Shown here: positions 688 to 59,058 of the stretch, piece after piece
Numbering within the stretch: the stretch's first letter is position 1
Layout of the letters: every line of letters starts with the position of its first letter
DNA from: an uncultured bacterium
GTDB taxonomy: Bacteria; Joyebacterota; Joyebacteria; Joyebacterales; Joyebacteraceae
Reading direction: 5' to 3'
Assembly (NCBI GenBank): GCA_964562405.1
Contig: CAZLTC010000006.1
Span: forward strand, 1,372 to 65,371
Length of the DNA stretch: 64,000 bases
The notes under the pieces: generated by a model
Told to the model about the DNA's origin: nothing
What the model saw: the letters and a program-made list of their open reading frames with translations, nothing else
Databases searched by the model: none
Program-made: the position numbers and the translations under genes

Positions 688-918
688 ATGAGCTGTCGTA
701 TTCACCAACCCGCCTTGAAAGGAGGTGCCTTGTGTCGGTGACGAGAGAATCCCGTTCGGCGGAAGCGCACCTCGAGATGCCTGCCAACTAGTCGGTTTCA
801 CCCAGCAGCACACCGGCAGCTATCCTCGGGTCCGGAGCCCCTTTGCCAGGGGAGCGTCCTCACGTGCGCTTCCGCTCGCTTGAGCCCACAGACATGTCCC
901 AAACAGGGAGCAAGAGAG

Positions 919-5669: not shown

Positions 5670-5738
5670 ATGAATTGGCGGCGGGTTAGCGGTAGTGACC
5701 CGGCGTTCGGCGGATTTGGCACATGCTTGGAGGAAAGT

Positions 5739-8585
5739 ATGCGTGGTCCAGCGCTCCCGGCGCCCGCGTTTGCCGTGTTGGTGGCCGGATTAATGAGCCT
5801 TGCAGCGGTCTCGGCGCTTGCCGCGCCGATGAACGGGGACATTGTGACGATTCGCCAGGCTGATGGGTCGTTCATTGACCTGGCGGTCTGGGGTGATGAG
5901 TTCTACGCGGTCGGGGAGACGCCGGACGGTTACACGGTCGTGCGCGATGACGTGACCGGCGTCTATTGCTACGCGAAGGTCTCGGCGGATGGGAACAAGC
6001 TCGTGTCGACGGGCATCCCTGCGGCGATCGGGCAGGTGCCCGCGGGCCTCTCGAAGCACGTCCGAGTCGACCGGGAGGCGGCTAGCGCGAAGGCCCGCGA
6101 GGTTAGGCAGGCCTTTGAGGCGCGCGAGCTGCAGGATTTGTCTGTTCTGCCCGAACCTCCCGGGCGCTCGCGCGGGACGTCGACGGGCAGCGTGACGGGG
6201 CTCACGCTCATCGTCGACTTCTCAGACGATGTGGGGACGATACCGCCCAGCTCCATCGATGACTTCTGCAACCTCGAGGGGTACACCGGATACAGCAACA
6301 ACGGTTCCGTGCGCGACTACTTCGATGACGTATCCGGAGGACTGCTCGACTATACCAACTATGTTTCGACCGCGTACTACCGTGCTGCGAACCCGAAGTC
6401 CTACTACACCGATCCCTCGGTCTCCTACGGGACCCGGGCCGTCCAGCTGATCAAGGAAGCGTTGAACGCTCTCGATGCGGCGGGGTTCGATTTCAGCGCG
6501 TACGACGCGGACGGGAACGGGAGCATAGACGCTCTGAACTGCTTCTACGCCGGCGCGACCTGGAACAACTGGGCCGAGGGCCTGTGGCCTCACTCAGGCT
6601 GGATGTCGTGGTGCGCGGACGGAGTGTGCACGCAGCGATATCAGATCTCGAACCTGGGAAGCTCTCTCAGGCTCGGCACGTTCGTGCACGAGAACGGCCA
6701 CATGCTGATGGGTTGGCCGGATCTCTATGACTACGACGGGGACTCGGCGGGCGTCGGCCAGTTCTGCGTGATGTGCTCGGTCGGACCGGGTACGAATCCG
6801 ATCGAGCCTTGCGCCTACATGAAGTACACGGCGGGTTGGGCCGACTTGTCGATGCCGACCGGCTACGAGAACGGCCTCTCCGCACCGAGTGCCGGGAACG
6901 TCGTCTACAAATTCGACAAGCCGGGCGCGCCCAACGAATACTACCTCGTTGAGAACCGGCAGAAGACCGGACGGGACAGCGCGATTCCAGACAATGGGCT
7001 TGCCATATGGCACGTCGACGAGAACGGCAGCAATGACTGGCAGCAGCGGACGCCGGACTATCACTACGAAGTCACTCTCGTGCAGGCCGACGGAGACTGG
7101 GATCTCGAGCACTACAACAACAATGGTGACAGCTACGACCTCTACGCGGCCACCGCGGAGACGGAGTGCACTCCCACCACATACCCCAACACCGACTGGT
7201 GGGACGGGAGCGAGTCGGGTTACTACTTCACGAACATCAGCTCGTCGAGCTCCGTGATGACGTTCGACTTCGCAGATGGTCCTCCGTTCAACCCCGAGTT
7301 CACCGCGCCGGTCTTCGCGTGCGAGATCGAGAAGTCGGGCTCGGCGACTTATCTAACCACTATCAGAAACCCCGGTAGTCTGTCCGGCAACGCCGACGTG
7401 GATATCGAGCAGGAGATCCTGCCCGACGGCGTCACGGACACCGACTGGACCGCCACCTACAGGCAGGTCGGCGGGCCGTGGCTCTCCACTCCCTCGTCCT
7501 TTTACCTTGGTCCGGGCGAGGAGATCGATATGGAAGTGAGGTTCGAGGACGGCATGGGTACCATGGAGGGGATGTGCCTGACGACGCTCACCGCGACCGT
7601 CAGCTCCGACCCGACGCTCTCGAACAAGGGATCGTTCGCGACGTTCGTGGACATGCCATGCGTGGCGATCATCGACGACGACAACGGAGCCGCGAACGAG
7701 ACATACCTCGCCACCGCCCTGGAAGATGCTGGATACTGCGCCAGGGTTTGGGACGCCTCGTCCCGCGGCCGGCCCAGCATCGAGGAGCTGTCGTCGTACA
7801 GCGCGGTCTTCTGGACGACGGCCGGAGGTGACGCCTCGTATCTGAGCGCGGACGACGAGCAGAACCTGATGGACTATCTCGACGGGGGTGGCGACCTCTT
7901 CATGTCCAGCATGGGCTACCTCACGGCCAGGACAGCACCCAACGCCTTCACCCAGGACTACCTGCACCTGGACTCGTGGCAGGACGACGTGGTCGCCTTC
8001 TCGGCGGCCGGGGTTGCCGGCGACCAGATATCCGATGGCATGAGTCTCATGCTCCTGGCGGGTCCCGTTTCCTCGAGTGGCTCCGATGCGATGGTGCTGG
8101 ACACACCGGCCGAGGCCATCTTCAGCGCGTCGTCGAACGTGACGGGCCTCAAGGTGGCGGAGGGCGACCACAAGATCGTCTTCCTCTCATTCGCCTTCGA
8201 GAACGTCAAGACCGCCACGGAGGACCCGAACAACCAGAGGACTCTCGTCTCCAGGGTCATGGACTGGTTCATGAACACGACGGGAGTCGATGATCTCACG
8301 ATCGGACGGCTCGCACTCGGGCACAACTACCCGAACCCGTTCAATCCGACCACGAACATCGCCTTCTCGGTGCCTGATGGGACCGAGCCCGTGGCTCTCC
8401 GGGTCTACAGCGTGGACGGCCGTCTGGTGAGGACGCTCGTGGATGGAGCTGTGCCTGCCGGGCCGCATACCGTGCTCTGGGACGGGACGAATGATGCCGG
8501 CGTGAGCGTGGCCTCTGGTGTCTACTTCGCGCGTCTGAGTTCGGCGGGAGAGACGAAGCAGACGAAGATGGCGCTCCTCAAGTAA
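5739..8585 (+). CDS. Secreted M6-like (immune-inhibitor-A-type) zinc metalloprotease with shared C-terminal sorting domain
   Basis: HENGH zinc motif followed by PDLYDYDG as in the M6 family; hydrophobic signal after M at 5739 (GGAGGAAAG upstream). The ORF-track start 5670 sits directly on the predicted -10 element and is unlikely. C-terminus NYPNPFNPTTNIAFSVP...GVYFARL...KMALLK. Confidence 0.75.
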   Translation: MRGPALPAPAFAVLVAGLMSLAAVSALAAPMNGDIVTIRQADGSFIDLAVWGDEFYAVGETPDGYTVVRDDVTGVYCYAKVSADGNKLVSTGIPAAIGQVPAGLSKHVRVDREAASAKAREVRQAFEARELQDLSVLPEPPGRSRGTSTGSVTGLTLIVDFSDDVGTIPPSSIDDFCNLEGYTGYSNNGSVRDYFDDVSGGLLDYTNYVSTAYYRAANPKSYYTDPSVSYGTRAVQLIKEALNALDAAGFDFSAYDADGNGSIDALNCFYAGATWNNWAEGLWPHSGWMSWCADGVCTQRYQISNLGSSLRLGTFVHENGHMLMGWPDLYDYDGDSAGVGQFCVMCSVGPGTNPIEPCAYMKYTAGWADLSMPTGYENGLSAPSAGNVVYKFDKPGAPNEYYLVENRQKTGRDSAIPDNGLAIWHVDENGSNDWQQRTPDYHYEVTLVQADGDWDLEHYNNNGDSYDLYAATAETECTPTTYPNTDWWDGSESGYYFTNISSSSSVMTFDFADGPPFNPEFTAPVFACEIEKSGSATYLTTIRNPGSLSGNADVDIEQEILPDGVTDTDWTATYRQVGGPWLSTPSSFYLGPGEEIDMEVRFEDGMGTMEGMCLTTLTATVSSDPTLSNKGSFATFVDMPCVAIIDDDNGAANETYLATALEDAGYCARVWDASSRGRPSIEELSSYSAVFWTTAGGDASYLSADDEQNLMDYLDGGGDLFMSSMGYLTARTAPNAFTQDYLHLDSWQDDVVAFSAAGVAGDQISDGMSLMLLAGPVSSSGSDAMVLDTPAEAIFSASSNVTGLKVAEGDHKIVFLSFAFENVKTATEDPNNQRTLVSRVMDWFMNTTGVDDLTIGRLALGHNYPNPFNPTTNIAFSVPDGTEPVALRVYSVDGRLVRTLVDGAVPAGPHTVLWDGTNDAGVSVASGVYFARLSSAGETKQTKMALLK

Positions 8586-8640: not shown

Positions 8641-8692
8641 TGTTGCATCGAGACGCCCTGTGCGAAAGCACGGGGCGTCTTCTTCAATGCAA
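8641..8692 (+). terminator. Long GC hairpin (inner stem GAGACGCCCTGTGC / GCACGGGGCGTCT, GAAA loop, outer arms GTTGCAT / ATGCAAC) followed by TCTTCTTC; terminator after the M6-like gene
   Basis: Inverted repeat seen directly; a second smaller hairpin lies at 8594-8612. Confidence 0.5.
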
Positions 8693-8806
8693 CATCGGGA
8701 AACGGTTGTCACACTTCACTCGTCTGGTACGGCACTTGCCCTGCTTGTGCACAATGTGTGTCAGGAACGTCTCACGTCACGAACGGGGGAAGGGAGATAC
8801 GGCGAG

Positions 8807-9901
8807 ATGAGAACATCGATCGTCCTAGTCTGCGCGGCAGTTCTGTGTGTCCCGGCGATCTGCGCCGGCCAGGAGTCCTACATCACGCTCGAGGAGAACA
8901 CCTGGGGCAACGCGCACAAGGAGTTCAACCTTGTGACGATACCCGATTGGATCGACAGCCTGGTGACGACCGGGTCGCCGCTCGTCATGGGGAAGCCAGG
9001 CCGGTCTCTGACGTTCGCGGACGGATCCGAAGAGGCGATACTCGCCGCGCTCCCGGCGTCGGGCCAGCCGGCCGTCCTGCCGGAGGACCTCGGCGACGCT
9101 CTGGTCGACTCGACGTGCGCCCTTCCCGAAGGGCTCCCGGCCAGCAAGAAGGGCAAGCTCAAGAACTCGCTTCTAGGTGAGACGATGGCGCTGGCCCTCA
9201 ACGCGAGGCTCGACCCGGAGCTGATAGACCTGGACGTCTGCTCCGTGATGATGACCGTAAACGTGCTGGCGGGCCCAGATGAGCTCTACGGTACAGAGGA
9301 CGACTCGCTGTGCGCGATGTGCGACACGATGACGATACGCATCCCGGAGGCCGTTCTGTCCGCGCTCCAGGATAGCATGGGCGTGGAACCTACCGTCGGG
9401 AACGTCCTCGAGTTCGCGAACATGGCGCTCGCGGGAGAGGGCACGTACGACGCCACCCTCAAGGGCGTATGGCACGCGGTGAAGAACATCAATCGTGGCT
9501 TCAAGAACTACCGCATGCTTGTCTACTGCGAGGGCGATACGGGCGGAGTGCCGATCGACATCAAGGGCGCGCCCGGCACTTCCGGAGGTCCTGAGGATCG
9601 CGCCGAGTCGATGGCGAGCGCCGTCGCGCTGTCGGCCTCGAGTCCGGTGAGCGACCGGGCGTTCGTCTACTTCACGGTGCCCGAGGCCAGCCGAGTGACG
9701 CTCTCTGTCTACAACGTCGCCGGCCGCGAGGTGGCGACTCTCCTGAACGGTCAGGTCTTCCAGGATCGCGCCACGGTGGAGATGGCCGCCGACAATCGAA
9801 GTGCCCTTCCGTCCGGAGTCTACTTCGTGAGAATGACGGCGGTTGGCGTCGCCAGCGGTGCCGAATACAGACAAACGGCCAAGATGCTGGTGGTTCGCTG
9901 A
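8807..9901 (+). CDS. Hypothetical secreted protein with divergent copy of the shared C-terminal domain
   Basis: Start MRTSIVLVCAAVLCVPAICAG (signal peptide) with GGGGGAAGGGAG upstream. C-terminus ...VYFTVPEASRVTLSVYNVAGREVATLL...GVYFVRM...KMLVVR. The ORF-track 5' extension from 8660 lacks an RBS/signal. Confidence 0.6.
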   Translation: MRTSIVLVCAAVLCVPAICAGQESYITLEENTWGNAHKEFNLVTIPDWIDSLVTTGSPLVMGKPGRSLTFADGSEEAILAALPASGQPAVLPEDLGDALVDSTCALPEGLPASKKGKLKNSLLGETMALALNARLDPELIDLDVCSVMMTVNVLAGPDELYGTEDDSLCAMCDTMTIRIPEAVLSALQDSMGVEPTVGNVLEFANMALAGEGTYDATLKGVWHAVKNINRGFKNYRMLVYCEGDTGGVPIDIKGAPGTSGGPEDRAESMASAVALSASSPVSDRAFVYFTVPEASRVTLSVYNVAGREVATLLNGQVFQDRATVEMAADNRSALPSGVYFVRMTAVGVASGAEYRQTAKMLVVR

Positions 9902-15870: not shown

Positions 15871-18360
15871 TTAGCGCAGGAGCACGAGCTTCGAGGAGGA
15901 GGCGCCGCAATCCGTCTCGAGCCTTGCGAAGTAGACCCCCGACGCCACGGGTCTGCCGCCGCCGTCGCGACCGTCCCACGCCACGGCAGACGCGCCGGCC
16001 GCGAACTCGCCCCCGGCGAGCGTGCGGACCAACCGCCCGGCGGCGTCGTAGATCGATACGCTGCCTCGCGAGCGCGAGGGGAGCAGAAGGGATATCGAGG
16101 TTGAAGGTCCGAACGGGTTGGGGTGCGTGCCGGAGATGCGCGGAGCGACCGGCAGGCCAGCCTCGGCCTCGTCATCCGGGACGTCTGACTGTGTCCCGTA
16201 GGCGAGCACGATGAGTCCCATCCCGGGCAGCTGCACCACGGCCGACTGTGCATACCCGTCCTCCGCGACCGCCTCCGAAGAGATGACGCCGGGGTTCTCC
16301 ATGCCGTTTCCGTCGTAGGCGGCGGCCTGGCTGTTGAGCGCCTCGTACCAGTCGCCGGCCTGCGGGAGGCCGATGCGGTAGCTTCCGTAGTCGGAGTCAC
16401 CGAAGTTCGCGAGGACGACCAGCACGTCTCCGGCTCCGCTCCAGCGCTGCCACGCGATGACGTTGCCGCTCTCGTTGAGGTGGAACACTTCATGTCCCGC
16501 GTCGGCGCGCAGCGCGTCGTTCCCCGTCCGCAGATGAATGAGGTCGCGGTAGTAGTTGAAGATGGGCGCATAGGTCGTCTTCTTGGACCAGTCGATGCGG
16601 TTCTCGTAGTCGGTCCCGAAGTCCGTGTCCTCGAGCCACTCGGTTCCCATCAACATGGCGGGGATGCCCGGAGCAGTCATGACGATACCCTGCGCGAGCT
16701 TGCTCCTGCCCTTGGCCCACTCGTCGTCATGGGGCGCCGTAGCGTCTATCGATTTGACGATGCGCTGGCCGCCGCTGGAGGGCCAGGCCTCGTCGTGCAG
16801 CTCGACGTAGTTCGTGACGTAGCCGTTCTCCAGATACTGGCCACCCCCGTTCACGATGTCCCTGATCTTCCATACCTCCGGGTCTCCATAGGCGGCGTCA
16901 AAGATCTCCTCGCGCAGGCGGTCCGTGAACACATCGTAGTACTGCGAGTCAAAGCCGGCTCCTCCCAGGCTGGTCGGGCGCGTCACCCAGGAGTTGTCCG
17001 GGAGCTGTTCGGCGATGGCGATCTTGTCGACCCACCTTCGGTCCATCTCGTCGTTCATGCGCTGCATGAGGCTCCAGCCCGAGGCCTCCTGAGGGTAGAT
17101 GTTCATGTAGCCGGTGGCGTCCATCCGGAACCCGTCGACCTTGAACTCCTCGAGCCAATAGAGAGCGCTGTCGGCAAGGTAGTCACGCACCGGCTCGTCG
17201 TCGAAATCGGGTTGACTGCCCCACGGTGTCTCGACCGCGGGGTCGTCGAAGTAGGCTTGCGTCCCGTCGTACTCCCAAAGGAAGTTGTCGCTGTAGGAGA
17301 AGTGGTTCCAGACGATGTCGAGGATGACGGCGATGCCGTAGGAGTGCAGGGTATCGATCATCTCCTTGAGCTCATCCGGCGTGCCGTACGCCCACTCCGG
17401 TGCCCACTGGGAGATCGGATTGTATCCGGCCGAGTAGTCCCAGGGGAACTCCGTGATCGGGTTCAGCATGACCGCGTTGACGCCCAGCTCGGAGAGGTGA
17501 GAAGCTCTCGCCGCTACCTCGGGGTAGCCGGCCGGGAAGGGCGCCGTGCCGTACGGGTCGTTCCTTCCGGAGAACGTGCCTACATGGAGCTGGTAAACGA
17601 CCATCTTCTCGAAGTCGGGTGTGTCGAAGTCGTCCATCTGCCAGTCGTACCTGAAACGATCCTCGATGTGGGTGTTGAGGTTGTCCCCGGAGTTCAGCGA
17701 CTTCCCGCGCGCGTCGGGCTTCCAGATCGAACCGTTGAAGTAGTACTTGTACATCTGGCGATTCGAGGCCGAGGGCACGTACGCGGCGAAGTACTCGCCG
17801 TCCTTCGTCATCGGGCTGGAGGTGCCCCAGCTGTTGAACTGGCCGCGGACGTAAGCAGTCGACGCACCGGGCGCCCACACCCGGAAGACCGCGCCGCCAT
17901 CGACCAGCGTCGAGCCGAGCGGGGCGTGCTCAAGGGTGTCAAAGTCGAGCACGAACCCGCCGTCGGTCGGAACACCGTCGGTCATCCCGCCGGCGCTCAG
18001 GTAGTCGACGTCCGCGCCGTCGGTCAGCTCGATGTAGTAGGAGAGGGTCGTGGACGACGTCGATGGGATCTGCGCCGTCCATACATCAAACGGCCCGCGT
18101 GCGGCTGTCTCAACGGCTCCGATCCAGGCGACGTCGCCGTCTTCGACATGTACGCGGGCCGAAGCTATGTCATCGTGGTAGGTCTGGAAGAGGATCTCGA
18201 AGCTCTGGCCGCTCATGGGGCACAGCGGCCTTCTGTCCTGCCACCAGACGTGAGATATGCCGTTCCACTCTATGTTGCCGTCGGGGCCTGCGGCCCCCGC
18301 AGTCATGCAAAGGGCGGCCACCAGGGCCGCTGCAGCTCCAGTGAGCCTGAGCGACTTCAT
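15871..18360 (-). CDS. Secreted GH13 alpha-amylase-family glycoside hydrolase with shared C-terminal sorting domain
   Basis: Signal MKSLRLTGAAAALVAALCMTAGAAG. GH13 motifs AVILDIVWNHFS, GFRMDATGYM, YVELHDE. C-terminus HPNPFGPSTSISLLLP...IYDAAGRLVRTL...GVYFARL...KLVLLR. Confidence 0.8.
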   Translation of the reverse strand: MKSLRLTGAAAALVAALCMTAGAAGPDGNIEWNGISHVWWQDRRPLCPMSGQSFEILFQTYHDDIASARVHVEDGDVAWIGAVETAARGPFDVWTAQIPSTSSTTLSYYIELTDGADVDYLSAGGMTDGVPTDGGFVLDFDTLEHAPLGSTLVDGGAVFRVWAPGASTAYVRGQFNSWGTSSPMTKDGEYFAAYVPSASNRQMYKYYFNGSIWKPDARGKSLNSGDNLNTHIEDRFRYDWQMDDFDTPDFEKMVVYQLHVGTFSGRNDPYGTAPFPAGYPEVAARASHLSELGVNAVMLNPITEFPWDYSAGYNPISQWAPEWAYGTPDELKEMIDTLHSYGIAVILDIVWNHFSYSDNFLWEYDGTQAYFDDPAVETPWGSQPDFDDEPVRDYLADSALYWLEEFKVDGFRMDATGYMNIYPQEASGWSLMQRMNDEMDRRWVDKIAIAEQLPDNSWVTRPTSLGGAGFDSQYYDVFTDRLREEIFDAAYGDPEVWKIRDIVNGGGQYLENGYVTNYVELHDEAWPSSGGQRIVKSIDATAPHDDEWAKGRSKLAQGIVMTAPGIPAMLMGTEWLEDTDFGTDYENRIDWSKKTTYAPIFNYYRDLIHLRTGNDALRADAGHEVFHLNESGNVIAWQRWSGAGDVLVVLANFGDSDYGSYRIGLPQAGDWYEALNSQAAAYDGNGMENPGVISSEAVAEDGYAQSAVVQLPGMGLIVLAYGTQSDVPDDEAEAGLPVAPRISGTHPNPFGPSTSISLLLPSRSRGSVSIYDAAGRLVRTLAGGEFAAGASAVAWDGRDGGGRPVASGVYFARLETDCGASSSKLVLLR

Positions 18361-18755: not shown

Positions 18756-20067
18756 TTACCTCAGCAGGACGAGCTTCACAGGGTCGGCACCCGACCCGGC
18801 AGCGAGCCGCGCGAAGTACACACCGGAGGGCAAGGGGCGTCCAACCGAGTCCCGGCCGTCCCATTGGGCGGCCGCGAGGGGGGACGCCTCGAGGCGCCGC
18901 AGCAGTCTCCCCGAGATGTCGTACACGTTGATGGCGTGCGCTTCACTTGAGGGCGTGGCGGGCGCCAGGAAGATCGCCTCGCGGAACGGATTCGGCCAGC
19001 ACCGGAGGACCGGGGGCGCGACGGCCACAGGGGCGTCCGCCGAGTCTCCGGGTATGTCCGTCGGAGGATCCAGCAGGGCGAAGTGGACCTGCATGTTGCT
19101 CTGCGTCGTGCCGCGCGGCCAGGCGAGAGCTACGATGCCGCTCGAGAGCGTCACTGGGTGCGGCTCCGTGTCCCAGCCCGCGTAGCTCAGCCAGTTCTCC
19201 TCGCTCGCCCAGGCGTAGCCGTCGTCGGAGACGCGCGAGTACAGATCGTAGGGGTCGCCACCGGTCGACGTTGCGTAATAGAGCCCGTACCGCCCGTCAG
19301 CCAGCTCGATGGGGAAGGAGTCGTGCGAGTTCTGCGTGTAGGTGACGCGGTTCTCTGCGCTCCAGTTCAGCCTGTCGGTCGACGTCTTCGTGAAGATGTC
19401 TATCTGGTAGTACCAGATACCGGTCTTGCGCTGATAGCTCAAGACGTACGTCCCATCCGAGTGGCGCATGATGCGGTTCAGTGAACCGGTGCTGGCGTTC
19501 GTCTTGTCGTGGTCCCATGTCGTCCCGTCCTCCGAGTGGGCCACGTGGCCCCCGTTCGAGAGCAAGTCGTAGCTCATGGTCAGGGATCCGTTGTTCTCGG
19601 AGAAGACGGTGGGGTTTACAAGGTCCTCGGTCGTCCACCCGAGGTCCACGATGCCTCGACGCGTCCAGGTCGTGCCGTCGGGGGAGTCGGCCATGTGTAT
19701 GCGGTAGCCGCCCGTCTCATCCGACAAGTAGTAGAGCTGGTACGTCCCGCCGGGCAGCTGAATGACCGATGGATGCCTCTCGTTCCCAGACGTGGCGACG
19801 ATAGCGCGAGGTGGGGACCACACCGCCCCGTCGGACGACACCGTCAGCATCAGATCACCGTTTTCATAGTTCGAGTCCAGCCTCTCATACACGATCATGA
19901 GGGAGCCATCGTCGCACTCGAGAAGCGAGGGCATGTAGTTCAGGTACCCGTCGTCGGTCACGGGCACGATGTCATAGGAGCACGCGGCCGATGCAATGAG
20001 CGCCAGTGCGCAGCATGCACTTGCCGCGGCCATGTGCGGACGGTGAACCGGCGAACGTGCAGACATG
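18756..20067 (-). CDS. BNR/Asp-box repeat (sialidase-like beta-propeller) protein with shared C-terminal sorting domain
   Basis: Four Asp-box repeats (SSDGAVWS, SPDGTTWT, SEDGTTWD, SDDGYAWA). Signal MSARSPVHRPHMAAASACCALALIASAACS. C-terminus WPNPFREAIFLAP...VYDISGRLLRRL...GVYFARL...KLVLLR. The ORF-track extension to 20735 is antisense to yajC and rejected. Confidence 0.7.
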
Positions 20068-20114
20068 AGTACCCCCCGGGGTCCTGTCCTGGTTTGCGCT
20101 GCGGGACGCTCACT

Positions 20115-20126
20115 ACCATTATAGCA
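20115..20126 (-). promoter_or_regulatory. Extended -10 element aTGcTATAAT (minus strand) upstream of the BNR-CTD gene
   Basis: Perfect TATAAT with TGn, ~50 nt upstream of minus-strand ATG 20067; no good -35. Confidence 0.3.
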
Positions 20127-20145
20127 TACTGTGGGCGCGGCGCTC

Positions 20146-20174
20146 TTGACTCGCCGGACGCTCCCTGATAACAT
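20146..20174 (+). promoter_or_regulatory. Candidate promoter TTGACT-N17-TAACAT for the small ORF / yajC-def-fmt operon
   Basis: Read directly; divergent from the BNR-gene promoter 20-30 nt away. Confidence 0.35.
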
Positions 20175-20267
20175 CTCCCGGTTGAACGGTAACAACGTCC
20201 AGGAGGCCATCTGGCGTTCAAGAAGGCGAAGCGCAAGGACGAGAAGCCCGGTTCGGGGATCATACTC

Positions 20268-20471
20268 GTGAAGGACGGCGTCAAGAGGGAGGTGACGTTC
20301 GAGGAGCTTGCGCTCTCGAACACGCTCTCCCTGGAGGCGCTCGTCCGCGTGCTGGCGAGGACGGGCGAGATCGACCCCAAGGAGCTGCTCGAGGAGATGG
20401 AGAAGGTGAAGGCCGAGCGGTTCCGTGACGGGTCCGAACTCCCGAACGCGGGTCCTGACACCGCTCACTAG
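20268..20471 (+). CDS. Small hypothetical protein upstream of yajC (start unclear; frame open back to a CTG at 20211 behind AGGAGG)
   Basis: Open frame with charged helical sequence (EELALSNTLSLEALVRVLARTGEIDPKELLEEMEKVKAERF). It sits 12 nt upstream of yajC and downstream of a predicted promoter. No ATG start is available. Confidence 0.35.
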   Translation: MKDGVKREVTFEELALSNTLSLEALVRVLARTGEIDPKELLEEMEKVKAERFRDGSELPNAGPDTAH

Positions 20472-20483
20472 GAGGCGTGGCTG

Positions 20484-20816
20484 ATGCTGTTTCTGACAAT
20501 GCTCTTCCCGGACGTCGCACACGCGATGGGCACGCCCGGCGCTGGTGGCGAAGGCGGCGGTGGCAACACGTCGTTCTTCTTCATGCTCATAGCGATCTTC
20601 GCTATCTTCTACTTTCTGATGATCCGTCCCGAGTCCAAGCGGCGCAAGGAACGGCAGCAGATGATCGACTCGCTCAAGCGGCACGACAAGATAGTGACGA
20701 TCGGCGGTCTTTACGGCGAGATTCTCGACGTCCACGACGACAGGGTAGTCGCCAAGATCTCGGATGGTGTGAAGGTCGAGATCGCGAAGTCTGCCGTGAC
20801 CGGCGTGAGGGAGTAG
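20484..20816 (+). CDS. yajC: Preprotein translocase subunit YajC
   Basis: Single TM followed by MIRPESKRRKERQQMIDSLKRHDKIVTIGGLYGEI, the YajC signature. GGAGG RBS. Confidence 0.85.
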   Translation: MLFLTMLFPDVAHAMGTPGAGGEGGGGNTSFFFMLIAIFAIFYFLMIRPESKRRKERQQMIDSLKRHDKIVTIGGLYGEILDVHDDRVVAKISDGVKVEIAKSAVTGVRE

Positions 20817-33738: not shown

Positions 33739-36273
33739 GTGACAATGCACGGCATCGGTAGGGTATGCGCATGCTTGGCGGCTGCGGCCGCCCTGGCTTT
33801 GTGCGCGGGTTCGGCGCTCGCGGACGAGAAGGCGGCCGGCGACCCCGAGATAGAGGCTCTTCAAAGGCAGATCGATGGCCAGGGTCTGAGCTGGACGGCC
33901 AAGCACAACTGGACGTCCGATCTCTCCACGGAGGAGTTCAGGGCTCTCCTGGGAACGCGAGTACCGCCCGAGGTTCAGAGGCGCTTCGACGCTCTGGACC
34001 CCCAGGACTTCCCGGTAGCGCGCGACCTGCCGGACAGCTTCAGCTGGCGGACGCAGGACATAATGACGGCCGTGAAGAACCAGGCCTCGTGCGGGAGCTG
34101 CTGGGATTTCGCGGGAGTGGGCGCCCTCGAGGCCGTGATAAAGCAGAGCACCAGCATCGAGCTGGACCTTTCCGAGCAGCAGGTTCTCTCCTGCGCTACT
34201 CCCGGATACGGGTGCGGCGGTGGCTGGTACGCGTGGGCTTGGAGCTACTTCCGGGACTACGGCGCGGTCAGCGAGTCGTGCATGCCGTACGAGGCCGACG
34301 ATGAGGTTCCCTGTGCCGACTCGGGATGTGAGAAGGTCGCGACGGCCAAGAACTGGATCGACATACCGGACGACGTCGAGGTCATCAAGACCGCGCTGCT
34401 CACCGCTCCGATCGCTACGACCTTCACCGTCTACGACGACTTCAGCTCATACGGATCCGGCTGCTACGAGCACGCGGGCGATGACCCGATCAACCACGCG
34501 GTCGTCATCGTCGGATGGGACGACAACAAGTGCGGCGCCGGCGACGGCGCGTGGCTCTGCAAGAACAGCTGGGGCAACTGGTGGGGCGACCTGGGCGGCT
34601 ACTTCTGGATCAAGTACGGCAGCTGCAACATAGGTTCCAACGTGCAGCAGGTTTTCTACTATCCGGGTGTCGACGTCGTCCACGACTCGCACGAATTCAG
34701 CGACACCGCGGGTGACGACGACGGCTGGGCGGATCCTGGCGAGTCGATCGATCTGTCGGTCACGCTCAAGAACGAGATAGTGGCTCCCGATCGCACGGGC
34801 GTGTCGGCCACGATCAGCACGAACTCCCCGTACGTAACGGTGACGCAGAATGCCGCGTCGTTCGGAAACCTCGACGCGGGCGAGACTGCGACCGGAGCGC
34901 CCGCGTACGAGTTCGTCGTGGACAAGTTCGCTCCTGCCGGCGAGGAGGTGGAGTTCGTCCTGTCGATCACCGGCGGGGCACGCTACGCGAACTCGGACAC
35001 GTTCGCTATCGTGCTTGGTCCCATCCCGGTCCTCCTCGTGGACGACGACGCGGGCGAGTCGACCGAAATGTGGTTCGAGGACTCGCTGAGGAGGGTCCGC
35101 CCTGTCCACAAGTCCTGGATCGAGGACGTGCAGGGCCCGATCTCCCTGGCCGAACTGAACCGGTACACCGCCGTCATCTGGGACTGCGGATGGGGTGGCA
35201 AACTGGACGCAGACAATAGGACGACCCTCGAGTCGTATCTCGACGGTGGCGGGACGATCCTCTTCTCCGGTGAGGACATGGGCTGGGCGCTCAACTACCA
35301 GAACGACCCGGACGAGATCCAGTTCTACAACGACTACCTTCATGCCGACTACATCGCCGACGACTCGGGCTACCGCAGCGTCGACGGCGTCTCGGGCGAC
35401 CCGATAGGGGACGGCCTGTCGTTCACGCTCAACGGCACCGACAGCGCCATGAACCAGTTCTATCCCAGCGAGATCGAGCCGAGGACGGGCGCGACGGGCA
35501 TCTTCGAGTATGCGCCCGGGACCGAGGGAGCGCTGCGCTACTCCACGGGCCATCGCGAGGTCTATCTCGCGTTCGGCTTCGAGGGAGTGACCGGCGCCGC
35601 CGTGCGCGACACGATCATGCGCAGGGCGCTCGAGTGGCTCGTCGATGGCGACTGGCCGGATGTGACGCAGCCGACCGTCGAGGTGACGGCGCCGAACGGT
35701 GGCGAAGAGTACTCCATTCACGACACCGTCAGAATAAGCTGGGACGCCGGTGACGACGTTGGGGTGACGGAGCTCGAGCTCTACTACTCGACCGACGGAG
35801 GAGCGACGTATCCGGACACCATTGCAATCCTGACGGCGCCGGCATCCTACTACGACTGGCCTGTGCCCGATGAGGCCGGCGAGACGTCTCGGGTGCGTGT
35901 GGTTGCGCGTGACGCGGCGGGACTGGCCGCGTACGACGACTCGGACGCGGATTTCAGCGTGGTCGACCCGGGCAGCGGTATCGTTGACGCGCCAAGGGCG
36001 CTTGCCCTAGGGCAGAACATGCCCAACCCGTTCAATCCCGTGACCCGCATAGCCTACTCGATACCGCGTCCCGCTCACGTTCGCCTTACGATATACGACG
36101 TCAACGGGAGGGTCGTGAGGAGTCTCGTCGATAGGTCGATGATGGCCGACGACTACGTCTCGGTCTGGGACGGCAGGACCGATGGCGGCGGCGAGGCCGC
36201 TTCGGGTATCTACCTGTACAGACTCACCGCCGATGGCACGGAACTCGAGCGGAAGATGATCCTGCTGCGCTGA
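33739..36273 (+). CDS. Secreted papain-family (C1A) cysteine peptidase with Ig-like middle region and shared C-terminal sorting domain
   Basis: Signal peptide. QASCGSCWDFAG catalytic Cys motif, HAVVIVGWDD His, NSWGNWWGDLGGYFWI. C-terminus QNMPNPFNPVTRIAYSIP...IYDVNGRVVRSL...GIYLYRL...KMILLR. RBS AAGGAGA. Confidence 0.8.
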   Translation: MTMHGIGRVCACLAAAAALALCAGSALADEKAAGDPEIEALQRQIDGQGLSWTAKHNWTSDLSTEEFRALLGTRVPPEVQRRFDALDPQDFPVARDLPDSFSWRTQDIMTAVKNQASCGSCWDFAGVGALEAVIKQSTSIELDLSEQQVLSCATPGYGCGGGWYAWAWSYFRDYGAVSESCMPYEADDEVPCADSGCEKVATAKNWIDIPDDVEVIKTALLTAPIATTFTVYDDFSSYGSGCYEHAGDDPINHAVVIVGWDDNKCGAGDGAWLCKNSWGNWWGDLGGYFWIKYGSCNIGSNVQQVFYYPGVDVVHDSHEFSDTAGDDDGWADPGESIDLSVTLKNEIVAPDRTGVSATISTNSPYVTVTQNAASFGNLDAGETATGAPAYEFVVDKFAPAGEEVEFVLSITGGARYANSDTFAIVLGPIPVLLVDDDAGESTEMWFEDSLRRVRPVHKSWIEDVQGPISLAELNRYTAVIWDCGWGGKLDADNRTTLESYLDGGGTILFSGEDMGWALNYQNDPDEIQFYNDYLHADYIADDSGYRSVDGVSGDPIGDGLSFTLNGTDSAMNQFYPSEIEPRTGATGIFEYAPGTEGALRYSTGHREVYLAFGFEGVTGAAVRDTIMRRALEWLVDGDWPDVTQPTVEVTAPNGGEEYSIHDTVRISWDAGDDVGVTELELYYSTDGGATYPDTIAILTAPASYYDWPVPDEAGETSRVRVVARDAAGLAAYDDSDADFSVVDPGSGIVDAPRALALGQNMPNPFNPVTRIAYSIPRPAHVRLTIYDVNGRVVRSLVDRSMMADDYVSVWDGRTDGGGEAASGIYLYRLTADGTELERKMILLR

Positions 36274-48200: not shown

Positions 48201-48429
48201 GCTCGCGATGGGGTGGGGCGGCGTGTCGGTCACCTGGGGACCGATGGCTGCGTCGCTGGCCTGGGGTCTGGCGTTCGCGACCGTGCTCACGCTGTTCGTG
48301 ATACCGGCGCTCTTCTGCATCGTCGATGATGTGCGGGCCCGCTTCGGCAAGCTTGACGTGCCCGGCGGGCGCCAGCCGGACCAGGACCTCAAGGTCGTCG
48401 AGGCGTTGTGCCGTGACCTGGAGGAGTGA
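45286..48429 (+). CDS. RND (HAE1/AcrB-like) efflux transporter permease
   Basis: 1047 aa with 12 TM segments and two large periplasmic loops; AcrB-family conserved segments. Confidence 0.85.
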   Translation: MHIGEFSVRQPVLVNLVFIAVLVVGVFTFFNMPAELLPNVNMDEAVVVVFYAGVSPEEMETLVTKPLEEEIDAVEDIDSVSSTSGESRSIIDVRFKPGLSDDEFDRRILDLRSAVGNARSELPEDAGDPEVVPIKLGEVIPILSLSIGGPVSDTVLREVADDLRDDILDVDYVRAVDVVGQREREIWVELDADRLESYGLPIGQVVASLSSRNLNVPAGTLDLGQSEYIVRTLGEFESLTDIEDSVIASDPYGRQIRIRDVGAVRDTLEVRLSAARLDGEKSVTLWVMKDKEGSVVNVVDDVRAVVDSYGKRLTEDVSFEIRNDTSIEVRDVLHILERNAVFGIILVALILFVFIGFRNAVLASIGIPFSFLAAFILMNAAGVTVNTLSLFSLVLVLGMLVDDAIIVIENIYRHMEHGMPARQAAVVGTGEVLAPVTAAVLTTVAAFLPLLLMSGLWGKFMSVIPKVVTFALLASLVEAFLVLPSHMADFARVTPRATRCHPQFVSFTRWYERILRRALLRRYRTMLLVGVLALVAIGLVFTLDVVIFQEEDLNQIEIRAQTAVGTRLDVTDRVAREIEQVLFELPSDEVEAVVTRVGFMIRNYRGELASNNMQFNVDLVDYELRDRSDDEIMEAVRRRISSEVPGLTFLSLSRPQQGPPSGRPVEVRVKGEDPGVLRRIANEMEALLATYPGVVDIDDDMTPGKSELNARIIPEAAALYGLTAYDISSTVRAAFEGVDATKYRGAGDDEIDIVVRLEEPDRSDLEDLRGLRVISPTGRSVPLGAVAEFSIDAAPAELHRRDGDRVVTVTGGVAGATTSTEVNRMLQRDLADVPDRYPGYRLDFGGEYQETQESFASLLMAFLVAIMLIYLILGTEFQSFIQPLIVMFTVPFAFIGVVIGLVVMRYPFTLNAGVAIVALAGVVVNDSIVLVDFIKKARAEGVTRWESVVQAGCMRLRPILLTSITTILGVLPLAMGWGGVSVTWGPMAASLAWGLAFATVLTLFVIPALFCIVDDVRARFGKLDVPGGRQPDQDLKVVEALCRDLEE

Positions 48430-48478
48430 ACGGGGCCGTGCGCGCGAGCGCGAAGATGAGGCCTTCGAGGAAGATGCT

Positions 48479-49438
48479 GTGACGGAGACACTTGGAAACC
48501 GGGCGGCGCGTGGTGCGGACGACGGTAGCGAGATCCGGGGGCAGGTTCTCGCGTGCTTCCACGACGAGTGGGAGGTCGCGCTGTCGGGAGGCCCGATCGT
48601 CCGCGCGTCGATCCGGGCGCGGCACTTCCTGGGCCTTCCGCGCGAGGAGAAGATCCTCGTTGCCGGAGACCACGTTGAACTCGCGCGCGTGAGAGACGTA
48701 GCCTACGTCATCGAGCGGCGTCTGCCGAGGTCGACCATCCTCTCCAGGCTCCTGCCCGGAGCCCGGCGCGACAAGGAGCAGGTGATCGTGGCCAACGCCG
48801 ACCTCCTCGTGGCCGTCGGCTCGCTCTCCTCGCCGGCGCTCAACAGGCGCCTGCTCGATCGCTTTCTCGTGATCGCCGAGGACGCTGGTCTGGAGTCGGT
48901 CGTCGTCCTGAACAAGGTCGACCTCGTGAGCGAGTCGGACTGGTCCCATGTCGCTCTGGGCTACGCGGCCGCGGGATACGCTGTGATCGCGACCTCCGCT
49001 ACGGAGGGCCGCTGCGTCGAGGAGCTGTCCGCGCGTCTAGCCGGCCGTTTCACGGTCTTCGCCGGTCCGAGCGGAGCGGGGAAGAGCTCCTTGCTGAACG
49101 CCATCGAGCCCGGCCTGGGCCTCAGGGTCAGAGAGGTGAGCGCCAAGACCGGCAAGGGGAAGCACACAACGTCCAACGTGACCGTGCTCAGGTTGGATGA
49201 TGGCTCTCTCGTGGCTGACACTCCGGGCTTCCGGGAATTGGGCTTCTGGAGGATCGACCCGGGCGAGCTGGACCAGCTCTTCCCCGAACTGCGCGCTCTC
49301 GCGCCGCAGTGCAGGTTCAGGGGATGCAACCATATCCCGGAGCCCGGCTGCGCCGTCACACGCGCGCTCGAGGAAGGCCGTCTTGATGGTGAGCGCTACG
49401 AGAGCTACGTGAAGCTCTTCGAGGAGCTGTCCGGCTGA
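48479..49438 (+). CDS. rsgA: Ribosome small-subunit-dependent GTPase A, copy 2 (RsgA paralogue)
   Basis: Same architecture as copy 1: OB-fold, P-loop GPSGAGKSSLLN, Zn-finger CRFRGCNHIPEPGC. GTG 48479 with GAGGAAG upstream; the ORF-track start 48326 overlaps the RND gene. Confidence 0.75.
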   Translation: MTETLGNRAARGADDGSEIRGQVLACFHDEWEVALSGGPIVRASIRARHFLGLPREEKILVAGDHVELARVRDVAYVIERRLPRSTILSRLLPGARRDKEQVIVANADLLVAVGSLSSPALNRRLLDRFLVIAEDAGLESVVVLNKVDLVSESDWSHVALGYAAAGYAVIATSATEGRCVEELSARLAGRFTVFAGPSGAGKSSLLNAIEPGLGLRVREVSAKTGKGKHTTSNVTVLRLDDGSLVADTPGFRELGFWRIDPGELDQLFPELRALAPQCRFRGCNHIPEPGCAVTRALEEGRLDGERYESYVKLFEELSG

Positions 49439-53646: not shown

Positions 53647-53734
53647 TGGTACCGGAGGCCGGGCTCGAACCGGCACGGGCCAGAGGCCCTCGGGATTTTG
53701 AGTCCCGCGCGTCTACCAGTTCCGCCACTCCGGC
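53647..53734 (-). tRNA. tRNA-Leu (anticodon CAA), 88 nt incl. encoded CCA
   Basis: Reverse complement folds as acceptor GCCGGAG / CUCCGGU, D-arm, anticodon stem CGGGA/UCCCG with loop CUCAAAA, long variable arm GGGCC..GGCCC, T-arm GCCGG-UUCGAGC-CCGGC, 3' ACCA. Confidence 0.85.
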
Positions 53735-53879: not shown

Positions 53880-53956
53880 GGGGCCATAGCTCAGTTGGGA
53901 CGAGCGCTTGACTGGCAGTCAAGAGGTCGCGGGTTCGATCCCCGCTGGCTCCACCA
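53880..53956 (+). tRNA. tRNA-Ala (anticodon GGC) with G3:U70 identity pair, encoded CCA
   Basis: GGGGCCA acceptor pairing with UGGCUCC (G3-U70 wobble), anticodon stem CUUGA/UCAAG with loop CUGGCAG, T-arm GCGGG-UUCGAUC-CCCGC, 3' ACCA. Confidence 0.85.
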
Positions 53957-54092
53957 GATGCCGCGAGTCTCGGTCGCCGGGAGACCTCTGACAAGGCCTC
54001 CCGGCGGACTCGTCTGGAGGCGGTGTGCCCGGGCGCCGGGGCGGATGCTCCCGGTCCGGAATACCCTCCGGGGGTGCTGAACGCCCAGCGTC

Positions 54093-54121
54093 TTGACACG
54101 GCGGCGTGACTGTGCTACACT
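54093..54121 (+). promoter_or_regulatory. Promoter TTGACA-N17-(TG)cTACACT for the C25/FG-GAP giant gene, followed by a ~200-nt leader
   Basis: Consensus -35, 17-nt spacer, TGn + TACACT; leader contains hairpins GGGATT-GTGA-AATCCC and GGAAC-AG-GTTCC. Confidence 0.5.
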
Positions 54122-54321
54122 GTATTGTAGGGATGCAGACGGGATTGTGAATCCCGCGAGACCACGGAAGCAGGAGCTTGCCACCAAGGATCACTGCTAT
54201 CGCTCAGCTTCATAGTCTGATTCCGGCACGACGAATGCCGTATTGACTGTGAGGAAGCGAGGCCGTTGGTTCATTGGTGGAACAGGTTCCTGCTTCTGCG
54301 TATTCAGGAGGGTGCTGTCAG

Positions 54322-57300
54322 ATGCGAGGTCATCTTGGGGCGGTGGTCGCTGCCGGCATCGTCTTGTCCGTCGCGGCAGTCGTTCAGTCGGCGCCTGGTG
54401 TCGCGCGCGTTTCGTTCGATGCGGCGGATCTTCACATATCGAGGCTTGGTGGCTTCGAGAGCGTGAGCATGGCGGGGTGCAGTTCGATGTCGCAGGTTGG
54501 GGAGCCGGAACTCCCGGTCATGGTCTTCCGGTTCGTTATCCCGGCCGACGCCAGGGTGGAGGACGTACTTGCCGAGTTCGATGAAGTCGACGTGCCGGGC
54601 GTGCATTCGGTGTCGCCCGCACAGCCCGAGGTCCCCATAGGGGAGGCCCCCGAGCGCGCGCAGCCGGACCCGGTGATCTATGGAAGCAGCGAGCCGTTTC
54701 CCTCCAGCCGCGTGCGCTACCTGGGTGACGGGTATCTGGGCGGATATCGCATCGCGAGCGTGGCGGTCTATCCACTGCAGTACGCCCCGAAGGAGGGACG
54801 CCTGACGCTGGCTACGGACGTCTCGGTTGAGTTGGTGCTTGCGCCAGGCGCCGAACGCGCCCGTCCGCGTCACAGAATGTCGGCCGAGGCGCAGCGGCTG
54901 TACGCCAGTCTGGTCGAGAGCATCGTCGAGAATCCGGGTGACGTCGTGACCTCGAGATCGGGCGCGGTCGATATCGTGGAAGACCAGGGGGACGTCGGTT
55001 TCAGTCCCCGATACACTCCGTCGCTTGAGGGCAGCCTGGTCGAGTACGTCATCATCACGAACGAAACGCTCGAGCCGTACTTCCAGCAGCTCGCCGACGC
55101 CAAGACGGCGAAGGGCGTGCCCGCGGTGGTGCGTACGGTCTCGTGGATCGAGGAGAACTACCCGGGCGGATGTGACCTGCCGGAGCGAGTGAGGATGTTC
55201 ATCCAGGACGCATACTCCTCCTGGGGAACGGTCTACGTCCTGCTCGGCGGGGACACGGACATCGTGCCGGTTCGCAAGGCGCAGACAACGTACTACGGTG
55301 GCGAACTGATCCCGTGTGACCTCTATTACAGTGACCTCGACGGCAACTGGAACGACGACGGCGACAGTTACTTCGGAGAGGCGTACAGGGGCGAGACCGC
55401 TCCGGGCGACAGTGTGGACCTGTATCCCGACGTCTTCGTTGGACGTGTCCCCGCGAGGAACTCCATCAACGTTCAGTCGTTCCTGGACAAGACCGACGCC
55501 TACGAGAATGACCCTGTTCCGAAGTTCACAGACAGAAACCTCTACCTGGCGGAAGTGCTGTTCCCCTACGACTGGGACGGCGGCGTCTACAGCCTGGACG
55601 GAGCAGCCGACATCGTCGAGCCGGGACTTCCGTTCGTGCCTCCGTCGATTCACAACGCGCGGCTCTATCAGAACCAGGCGGAGTTTCCGGGCTCGTATAG
55701 CCTGAGTGCTCAGGCCCTGGTGGACTCGTTCAACCTGGGCTACAACATCGCTGTTCACGTAGGCCACGGGAACAAGGACATTATGAGGGCCAGCAAGGAC
55801 AGCTATCTCTCGATGTCCGACGCGTCTGAGTTGTCCAACGGCATCGACAAGGCCTCGTTCCTATGGATGCTGGACTGCTCGACGACGGCCATTGACTACG
55901 ACTGCATTGCCGAACGGTTCATGAACAACCCCGACGGTGGTACCATGGCGCTCTTCGGACCCACCCGGTACGCCTTCCCAGCGACCTCGAGAACGTACTA
56001 CTGGGACTGGCTGGACCTTCTGTACAACCAGGGCATCACGAGGGTAGGTCCCCTGTGCGCCGCCTCCAAGGCTCTCCACGCCAGCTACGCGGAGTCCGGC
56101 ACCGACAACACCGACCGATGGACTCAGTTTGCGACCGTCACGCTGGGCGACCCTGAGCTACCACTCTGGACGGGAAGGCCGCAGACGCTGGCCGTCGGTC
56201 ACCCGTCGGGTCTGCGAGTCGGCGACTCCGGGATGACCGTCACGGTGACCGACCCGAGTCCGGTGGACAGCGCTCTCGTATGTGTGAGCAAATCCGGGGA
56301 CGTCTACGCTCGCGGCTACACCAACGCTTCAGGGCAGACAACGCTGTCGTTCGTTCCCCACACGACAGGAACGCTCAGCGTGGTCGTGTCACGTCCCGGC
56401 TATGAGCCCCACGAGTCGACCGCGAACGTGACGGCCGCCTCCGGCGCGCACGTCTACCTGACATCGGTGGCGATCGACGACGACGCCTCCGGTTCGAGCG
56501 TTGGCAACGGCAATGGCGAGTGCGAGGCGGGAGAGACGATCGAGCTCGACATCACAGCGCGCAACGGCGGCAGCGCGTCCGCCGCATCGGTGACGGCCAC
56601 GCTGACGTCGGTCGACGGCTACGTCCTGATCGAGGACGACACGGCCGTGCTGGGTACGATCGCCGCATCGGGCACGGCCTCATCCGACGCAGCCTTCAGA
56701 TTCCAGACGTCGATCGACACCCCGAACGAGCACGACGCCGCGTTCACGATCCAGTTCAGCAGCGGATCGCGAGTCGTCTGGACGGAGGATTTCGACCTCA
56801 GGATATACCGCCCGATTCTCGGCCAGATTCATGTCGACCTCGACGACTCGACAGGCAACGGCAATGGGGTGCCCGAGATGGGGGAGACCGTCGATGTCGT
56901 CATCGAGCTCCTGAACGACGGCAACGGGCAAGCTGGAGCCGTCGCGGGCGTGCTGCGCTACCCCTCGGCCGGGGCAACCGTGGCCGACAGCGTCGATACG
57001 TGGGGCGACATCGAGGCCGGTGCGACGGCGGTCGGGTCCGGTGGCTTCTCATTCACGGTGAACGGCCCGCTCACCAACCACTTCCGGCTCACGCTCAGCG
57101 ACGAGCGAGGAGCCAACTGGACCTCGTACCTCGACTTCATGAGGCCTTCGGGGCCCGATACTCTCTCGGGAGTGGTCGAGGGCACCACCATAGGGCTTTC
57201 CTGGGACGTAACCACCGACGCGGATCTTCGAGGCTATGACATCTACCGCTCGCAGTCGGTGAGCGGCCCGTACGAGATCGTGAACGGCGCAGTCGTGGAG

Positions 57301-59058: not shown

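Follow-up and report, generated by a model that had tools for sequence, protein, structure and literature searches.

Which task could a gingipain-like cysteine peptidase fulfill when it is joined, within a single polypeptide, to a beta-propeller and a secretion tail? This question is raised by a gene of an uncultured bacterium located on contig CAZLTC010000006.1 (GenBank assembly GCA_964562405.1), of which a stretch of 64,000 nucleotides (64 kb) was analyzed (hereafter, the window). To our knowledge, nearly all that is known of gingipain-type C25 proteases comes from their role as virulence factors in a single oral pathogen. An initial annotation had described the gene as a fusion of a C25 peptidase, a propeller and a C-terminal domain (CTD), and this fusion is real once the length of the protein, the number and extent of its repeats and the spacing of its catalytic residues are corrected. 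We consider it probable that the protein is a secreted or surface-located, gingipain-like cysteine endopeptidase zymogen that is exported via Sec and subsequently via a CTD-dependent, type-IX-like route, is activated at a basic junction, and is targeted by its propeller. Its orthologues make up a large Eisenbacteria/Krumholzibacteriota protein family that is automatically annotated as C25 and is uncharacterized.

Gene and Domain Architecture

The open reading frame (ORF) on the plus strand extends from either a TTG codon at position 54274 or an ATG codon at position 54322 to the stop codon at 59058. We take the ATG codon as the true start of a predicted protein of 1578 amino acids (aa), because it is preceded by the Shine-Dalgarno sequence AGGAGG, because the identical 1578-aa protein is present as entry P0001 in a public collection (no name is attached to it there), and because Met1 and the sequence ATGCG are kept in the orthologues. 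The length of 1594 aa originally given for the same interval is that of the maximal ORF beginning with TTG. All six motifs that had been quoted from the protein, YVLLGGDTDIVP, HVGHGN, WMLDCSTT, ADIDGDADLEIVMG, ADLDHDGRSEIIL and MDLDGDGDVEVVVGG, are present in the translation. With a GC content of 0.82 at third codon positions, the gene resembles the remaining genes of this window, whose overall GC content is 65%.

From its N- to its C-terminus, the protein comprises a signal peptide, a gingipain-type prodomain, the C25 catalytic domain, an immunoglobulin (Ig)-like domain, two beta-sandwiches, a fibronectin type III (fn3) domain, eight FG-GAP/VCBS blades, a disordered linker, and a type-A CTD of the kind that the T9SS (type IX secretion system) uses (Table 1). 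The domain search proposed as a check of the fusion returned Peptidase_C25 over its full length (PF01364; model positions 1–374 of 374, aa 242–615; 188.8 bits against a cutoff of 23, E = 2e-55), Propeptide_C25 (PF08126; aa 25–178; 48.9 bits against a Pfam cutoff of 22), FG-GAP_3 (79.4 against 26.9) and FG-GAP (45.9 against 22.1), and the T9SS type-A tail passes when scanned alone (TIGR04183; 27.1 bits against a cutoff of 23). The Ig-like and CarboxypepD_reg matches in Pfam (aa 620–708) are weak, as is that of the fn3 domain (aa 952–1025), for which a family profile search against solved fn3 domains yields E = 2e-10. A partial match to TIGR03900 (aa 731–902) covers the beta-sandwich region, to which precomputed PF07705 matches on homologues also pertain. 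The approximately 420 aa that separate the catalytic domain from the propeller are the Ig-like domain, the two beta-sandwiches and the fn3 domain.

AlphaFold2 models were calculated separately for the N- and the C-terminal halves, each from a 69-sequence alignment, and attained mean predicted local distance difference test (pLDDT) scores of 90.1 (predicted template modeling score, 0.88) and 91.6, respectively. The signal peptide appears in the model as a helix (aa 2–20) of low pLDDT. The fold by which C25 enzymes are recognized, a caspase-like alpha/beta domain followed by an Ig-like domain, is present in the N-terminal model with a pLDDT of 90.

Catalytic Core and Prodomain Junction

HVGHGN and WMLDCSTT had been proposed to carry the catalytic histidine and cysteine at a distance of about 35 residues. 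For the two residues concerned, His482 and Cys519, the distance is 37. In a phmmer comparison with solved structures (4ief_B), His482 falls on His211 and Cys519 on Cys244 of RgpB. Both residues are invariant in all 69 homologues compared (35–79% identity), as are the G-H-G and N/D-C motifs that flank them, along with the acidic residues E411, D426 and E531. Foldseek searches with the catalytic and Ig-like domains recovered Kgp (6i9a, 4rbm) and RgpB (1cvr, 4ief) with E values between 1.5e-27 and 1.6e-26 and template modeling (TM) scores of 0.76–0.83, and the N-terminal domain matched the prodomains of Kgp and RgpB (5mun and 4ief_C) with TM scores of 0.60–0.70. In the phmmer alignment, the sequence R230/Y231-T-P coincides with the mature N-terminus Y-T-P of RgpB; the residue preceding this junction is R or K in 49 of 49 close-clade sequences and S or T in the distant clade. 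The joint conservation of the catalytic residues, of a putative zymogen prodomain and of its junction suggests that selection has maintained catalysis.

The Propeller and the C-Terminal Tail

A motif scan of the C-terminal half detects exactly eight FG-GAP/VCBS repeats, which start at aa 1056, 1111, 1168, 1225, 1272, 1321, 1368 and 1415, are spaced by 47–57 aa and extend over approximately 410 aa (aa 1045–1455). Hence, the FG-GAP-like propeller foreseen in the initial annotation is present, while its estimates of more than eight repeats and of about 700 aa were too high. In the AlphaFold2 model of the C-terminal half, the repeats form a closed, eight-bladed propeller with eight inner strands. 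In this region, the family profile matches designed Cake propellers (Cake10; 1e-41), the PHL/PLL lectins of Photorhabdus (6.5e-16 and weaker), Bap1 (7e-9), integrin alpha-V (3e-4), ITFG2 and YesX. Foldseek searches with the predicted structure agree with this assignment to the VCBS/FG-GAP superfamily. Bap1, a biofilm matrix adhesin of Vibrio cholerae (PDB 6mlt), and the PLL/PHL lectins are, unlike the protein studied here, stand-alone binders without a protease or a T9SS tail, and integrin propellers are seven-bladed, whereas the present one has eight blades. The propeller is the best-conserved C-terminal module of the family and would most likely bind a substrate, a glycan or a surface.

As had been noted from the sequence, the protein ends in a shared tail: a homologous domain of about 90 aa terminates six further proteins of the window (blastp E values from 1e-9 to 1e-28). 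Counting the C25 protein, seven proteins in the window are tailed, which corresponds to about one gene in six. When whole proteins are scanned, the target stays under the cutoffs of TIGR04183 (20.0 against 23) and PF18962 (14.7 against 27), and two neighboring proteins and a paralogue from another locus (L003) exceed that of TIGR04183 (29.7, 23.2 and 30.5 bits); all eight aligned tails match TIGR04183 at E ≤ 0.01, the best at 3.5e-9. FlgD_ig matches aa 1499–1562 of the target with 35.7 bits. A profile of the tails finds the solved CTDs of PorU (5e-6), RgpB (7e-4) and PorZ (2e-3), and also FlgD Ig domains. AlphaFold2 predicts an all-beta domain (aa 1499–1576) with a pLDDT of about 80–94 per 10-residue block. 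Functional type-A CTDs are described in one study (PMC11285876) as compact Ig-like beta-sandwiches that carry a Lys in the last strand and, at the beta3–beta4 turn, a conserved Gly; the tail of the target contains both residues as defined there. Across the eight tails, the G and R of the motif AGRR are invariant and a K/R-x-x-L-L-K/R end is kept.

Promoter and Leader RNA

A consensus promoter and a structured leader of about 200 nucleotides (nt) had been predicted upstream of the gene; both are found, and both are conserved in orthologous loci. The -35 hexamer and a TGTGnTAnAnT -10 region are invariant across seven such loci. Folding of the whole leader yields z = -5.6, and its core is a rod-like hairpin of considerably lower z (Table 1). 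The basal stem of this hairpin consists of 14 base pairs, in which positions 54167–54180 (GAAGCAGGAGCTTG) pair with positions 54283–54296 (CAGGTTCCTGCTTC). Across the sequences, 90% of this stem is paired, compared with 35–53% when the partners are slid against each other, and five pairs carry compensatory changes. A shuffle control of the stem is moderately convincing, as 21–34 of 500 shuffles reach the observed values. The blocks AGCAGGAG, ACUGCUA (inside the hairpin) and UCCUGCUU are invariant.

A combination of nhmmer, a pattern scan of metagenomes and a covariance model recovered 11 distinct instances of the hairpin, each of them situated directly upstream of a C25 orthologue. The covariance model (R1) scores these 11 distinct loci with 74–126 bits and detects no leader beyond them among 89 sources holding 1.0 Mb, and the leader is therefore restricted to one subclade of the orthologues. 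Of the 54 stretches picked up by the metagenome pattern scan, four are true instances and the rest are chance hits; none of these stretches places a leader before any other gene. No Rfam family corresponds to the leader, as only the two tRNAs near the gene pass the threshold. Taken together, the comparisons present the leader as a credible clade-specific cis element and its hairpin of about 135 nt as a candidate new cis-regulatory RNA specific to the C25 gene. A mechanism by which the 3' strand of the stem (CUCCU) sequesters the Shine-Dalgarno sequence is not supported; the predicted pairing is clear only in one locus (L008), whereas the window shows it in part and most loci do not show it.

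Distribution of the Family

The best 120 database matches of the protein all possess the same architecture. Most of them are 1565–1600 aa long and 49–78% identical to it; a second clade comprises proteins of about 1700 aa with 37–40% identity. Where the source gives a name, it reads "C25 family cysteine peptidase," "VCBS repeat-containing protein" or "hypothetical," and all of these proteins come from Candidatus Eisenbacteria. Relatives are encoded by no fewer than 530 stretches of species-representative genomes. The full collinear set from prodomain to tail occurs in Eisenbacteria, in Krumholzibacteriota and in a few bins labeled Fibrobacteraceae or Gemmatimonadota, and relatives in WOR-3, Ignavibacteria and Zixibacteria are devoid of the propeller. 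A search with the N-terminal half against 1.84 billion representatives clustered at 50% identity matched 12,029 clusters at E ≤ 1e-3 and 2,642 at E ≤ 1e-30. These matches range in length from about 600 to more than 3,000 aa, and the N-terminal module is therefore joined to many different C-terminal regions. The fusion had been called unusual, an appraisal that is relative; the architecture is common in genomes of Eisenbacteria and Krumholzibacteriota. In the full-text literature, we found no description of this protein family or of a T9SS in Eisenbacteria.

Full-length paralogues coexist within single genomes: two loci (L005 and L011) stem from one metagenome-assembled genome, and L018 and L003 carry tandem copies. 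Such within-genome paralogy is typical of diversifying secreted enzymes. In L018, both C25 copies are full-length. In L003, a 1133-aa paralogue that lacks the propeller, is 33% identical to the target and has the same tail lies 135 nt upstream of a 1574-aa copy.

Proposed Function and Alternative Readings

The gingipains RgpB, RgpA and Kgp of Porphyromonas gingivalis (MEROPS C25) and the protein studied here have in common a signal peptide, a prodomain of about 200 aa, a caspase-like domain with a His/Cys dyad and an Ig-like domain, all in the same order, as well as a C-terminal T9SS sorting domain, the alignment at the RgpB maturation site R/YTP and the agreement in predicted fold. In contrast to the gingipains, the target shares only 18–19% identity with them, its host belongs to an uncultured environmental phylum and not to the Bacteroidota, the haemagglutinin/adhesin (cleaved-adhesin) domains are missing in Pfam scans, with two beta-sandwiches, the fn3 domain and the eight-bladed propeller present instead, and the residue aligned with the S1 specificity residue varies across the homologues. 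The match to RgpB in phmmer reaches E = 2.7e-5 at best, and by sequence the protein would constitute a deep C25 branch rather than a gingipain orthologue.

From the computed properties of the locus (domain identity, dyad conservation, predicted folds, sharing of the tail, and conservation of promoter and leader), we infer how the enzyme may be made, exported, processed and employed. Transcription would start at the conserved sigma-70-like promoter and proceed through the structured leader of about 195 nt. A Sec signal peptide would direct the protein into the periplasm, from where a type-IX-like pathway that reads the type-A CTD would move it across the outer membrane; the same tail would mark the amylase, the papain-family (C1) protease, the M6 metalloprotease domain protein and others encoded in the window. 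As in RgpB and Kgp, the prodomain (aa 24–230) would hold the catalytic domain inactive until its own removal after the conserved basic residue at P-R230/Y231, and catalysis would then rely on the Cys519/His482 dyad within the caspase-like C25 fold. Four beta-sandwich domains may serve as a stalk, and the eight-bladed propeller with its calcium loops would take the place of the haemagglutinin/adhesin domains of gingipains. A role in extracellular protein degradation and/or adhesion is likely, because the Candidatus Eisenbacteria host possesses many tailed hydrolases.

Several observations weigh against this assignment. By family profile, the C25 core scores RgpB with 83, PorU with 63 and Kgp with 54 bits, so that the sequence alone does not firmly place the core with the gingipains over PorU. 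Residue D430, which is aligned with Asp163 in the S1 pocket of RgpB, falls into a column composed of D (29), H (19) and gaps (20) among the 69 homologues, and the equivalent of RgpB Glu152 is conserved moderately. In gingipains, an acidic S1 residue (Asp163 of RgpB, Asp516 of Kgp) sets the specificity for Arg or Lys, and a column as mixed as this one allows neither to be assigned to the target. The Cys-His geometry and the S1 pocket are derived from sequence alignment and the global match in fold. Furthermore, no gene for type-IX machinery (SprA, PorV, PorK-N) lies within the 64-kb window.

Since PorU is likewise a C25-family enzyme that retains its CTD (PMC4560394, PMC11285876), the protein might be a PorU counterpart, that is, a CTD signal peptidase/sortase that trims tailed cargo, keeps its own tail and docks through its propeller to a secretion/attachment complex or a surface glycan. 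With seven tailed cargoes in 64 kb, the organism would require an enzyme of this kind; among the three Eisenbacterial C25 paralogue types, all at about 80 bits, no one type matches PorU better than the others; the family profile puts PorU between RgpB and Kgp; and PorU (NF033707; PDB 6za2) not only combines a C25 core with a type-A-like CTD but is also the best solved match of the target tail. We nevertheless consider this reading unlikely. The NCBIfam PorU model NF033707 yields 78.4 bits against a cutoff of 420, and the fold match to PorU (6za2; E = 5e-10, TM 0.18–0.26) is far weaker than that to the gingipains (E ~1e-27, TM ~0.8). The N-terminal region of PorU (about 365 aa) is of a different kind, and PorU lacks a propeller, whereas the target displays a prodomain of the removable, gingipain type with a basic residue conserved at its cleavage junction; paralogues of the full architecture, several per genome, are not what one finds for single-copy machinery, and a porV-like neighbor is absent from the four genomic contexts that were read. 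The 1133-aa paralogue adjacent to P0052 was evaluated as a possible true PorU, but its identical score of 80 bits permits no discrimination. A broader variant, to which we attach little credence, holds that the missing CTD peptidase/sortase of a type-IX-like system outside the Bacteroidota is either the target or an Eisenbacterial paralogue of it, which would be docked to the surface by its propeller and have its synthesis gated by the leader RNA; it is motivated by the lack of a PorU equivalog among the three C25 paralogue types and by the organism's reliance on tailed cargo.

The position of the gene upstream of mraZ-rsmH-ftsL-ftsI-mur, the division and cell wall (dcw) cluster, could alternatively indicate a cell-envelope housekeeping protease tied to division and wall synthesis; in the window and in two related loci (L004 and L001), the C25 gene is separated from mraZ by at most one gene and has the same tRNA-Leu/tRNA-Ala genes on its other side. 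This is very improbable, as more distant orthologues and paralogues (L003 and L002) do not keep the linkage, a conserved promoter and leader belong to the gene itself, gaps of 300–480 nt set it apart from its neighbors, and the signal peptide, the prodomain, the adhesin-like propeller and the secretion tail make up the architecture of an exported enzyme. We rejected a functional connection with the dcw cluster, since the synteny is confined to the close clade (the window, L004 and L001). A further reading is that of a pseudo-protease, a non-catalytic adhesin in which the C25 fold is a scaffold and the function resides in the well-conserved propeller. There is a precedent in NF052323, a curated family of T9SS-dependent, M6-like inactivated metalloproteases of Bacteroidota whose members likewise combine a peptidase-like head with a type-A CTD and an FG-GAP propeller; the target matches it through its propeller and tail with 113.8 bits over four stretches, the family cutoff being 600. 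The head of NF052323 proteins, however, is an inactivated M6 metalloprotease, whereas the head of the target is an apparently active C25 enzyme, and the invariance of His, Cys, the G-H-G and N/D-C motifs and the three acidic residues down to 35% identity, together with the conserved zymogen prodomain and junction, leaves the adhesin reading with hardly any probability.

Current understanding is not overturned by these findings; rather, a known design is extended to new lineages. The prodomain/C25/Ig module constitutes a large environmental family across candidate phyla of the Fibrobacterota-Chlorobiota-Bacteroidota (FCB) group; in Eisenbacteria and Krumholzibacteriota it has become fixed in combination with a VCBS propeller of eight blades and a tail of the T9SS type. 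The protein is thereby a candidate for the means by which uncultured heterotrophs attack extracellular protein, for the swapping of targeting modules between proteases (adhesin domains versus a propeller), and for CTD-dependent secretion outside the Bacteroidota.

Genomic Context

On the 5' side of the C25 gene, the window and the L004 locus (70% identity) contain resistance-nodulation-division (RND) efflux genes and genes for RsgA, a nucleotidyl-transferase, a PDZ protein, tRNA-Leu(CAA) on the minus and tRNA-Ala(GGC) on the plus strand; a gene for a DUF7901/GEVED protein, mraZ, a STAS-domain gene, rsmH, ftsL, ftsI and mur genes follow on the 3' side. The L001 locus (58% identity) is without the DUF7901 gene. 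Because gene order is completely different in the more distant loci L003 and L002, we attribute the location beside the dcw cluster to inheritance of gene order and not to a functional link.

Table 1. Positions of the features discussed in the text. Coordinates refer to the window unless another locus is named; lengths are in nucleotides or amino acids.
Feature	Position	Strand	Basis or remark
tRNA-Leu(CAA)	53647-53734	-	
tRNA-Ala(GGC)	53880-53956	+	
Sigma-70-like promoter, TTGACA-17-TACACT, extended -10 TG	54093..54121	+	Consensus scan, 10/12 matches
5' untranslated leader, ~195 nt	54128..54321	+	Start site deduced from the -10 element
Rod-like leader hairpin	54162..54302	+	Minimum free energy -75.6 kcal/mol, z = -10.6
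Shine-Dalgarno AGGAGG	54306..54311	+	10 nt 5' of ATG, sequence read directly
Coding sequence, 1578-aa C25 peptidase/propeller/CTD protein	54322..59058, stop codon included	+	100% identical to public P0001
Sec-type signal peptide, aa 1-23	54322..54390	+	MRGH, hydrophobic stretch, VQS/A; sequence read, cleavage site inferred
Gingipain-type N-terminal prodomain, aa 24-230, ending at the P-R230/Y231 junction	54391..55011	+	PF08126, Foldseek, RgpB alignment
C25 catalytic domain, aa 231-620	55012..56181	+	PF01364 full length, RgpB alignment, Foldseek
Catalytic codons	His482, 55765-55767; Cys519, 55876-55878	+	RgpB alignment
Ig-like domain after the catalytic domain, aa 621-705	56182..56436	+	Weak PF03785 and PF13620; Foldseek RgpB/Kgp; RgpB profile match 367-705
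Two beta-sandwiches, aa 711-829 and 833-937, CARDB-like in homologues	56452..57132	+	AlphaFold2 C-half secondary structure, pLDDT >90
Fibronectin type III domain, aa 949-1032	57166..57417	+	Weak PF00041; AlphaFold2 strands agree
Eight-bladed FG-GAP/VCBS beta-propeller, aa 1045-1455	57454..58686	+	DxDxDG-type loop in each blade
Disordered linker between propeller and CTD, aa 1471-1482	58732..58767	+	pLDDT <50, AlphaFold2 C-half fragment residues 771-782
T9SS type-A C-terminal sorting domain, aa 1485-1578, Ig-like beta-sandwich, end RKMVLLK	58774..59055	+	TIGR04183, FlgD_ig, tail profile
Weak terminator-like hairpin	59134..59146	+	Pattern scan only, 1 site against 2.5 expected by chance; no evidence of function
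M6 metalloprotease domain protein, tailed	5670-8585	+	
413-aa protein of unknown function, degenerate tail	8660-9901	+	
Alpha-amylase, tailed	15871-18360	-	
659-aa protein of unknown function, tailed	18756-20735	-	
Papain-family C1 protease, tailed	33739-36273	+	
DUF7901/GEVED protein, tailed	59539-61740	+	
Leader hairpin, L004	9838-9980		
Leader hairpin, L006	1472-1613		
Leader hairpin, L005	211-351		
Leader hairpin, L099	6365-6507		
Leader hairpin, L001	9826-9966		
Leader hairpin, L008	5731-5873		
Leader hairpin, L102	3301-3438		
Leader hairpin, L010	742-885		
Leader hairpin, L007	5768-5903		
Leader hairpin, L016	5846-5982		
C25 paralogue of L003, 1133 aa	6465-9866		Tandem with the following
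C25 paralogue of L003, 1574 aa	10001-14725		Tandem with the preceding

The tRNA-Leu and tRNA-Ala genes form a divergent pair just upstream of the C25 promoter, a position that they also occupy in L001 and L004; tRNA-Ala is followed by a conserved GC-rich hairpin at approximately 53975–54012. The STAS-domain gene (62611–62970) resides between mraZ and rsmH in the head of the dcw cluster (62041–63976, plus strand), and the same insertion is seen in L001 and L004; it is an unusual member of an otherwise very conserved cluster. Two genes for RsgA-family GTPases occur within this single window (880–1914 and 48326–49438, both on the plus strand). A pullulanase-type enzyme with PUD/CBM48 domains is encoded at 2074–5415 (plus strand) near several peptidases (S9, M16, M56/TonB_C), and the presence of this enzyme and of the tailed alpha-amylase near peptidases fits a polymer-degrading heterotroph.

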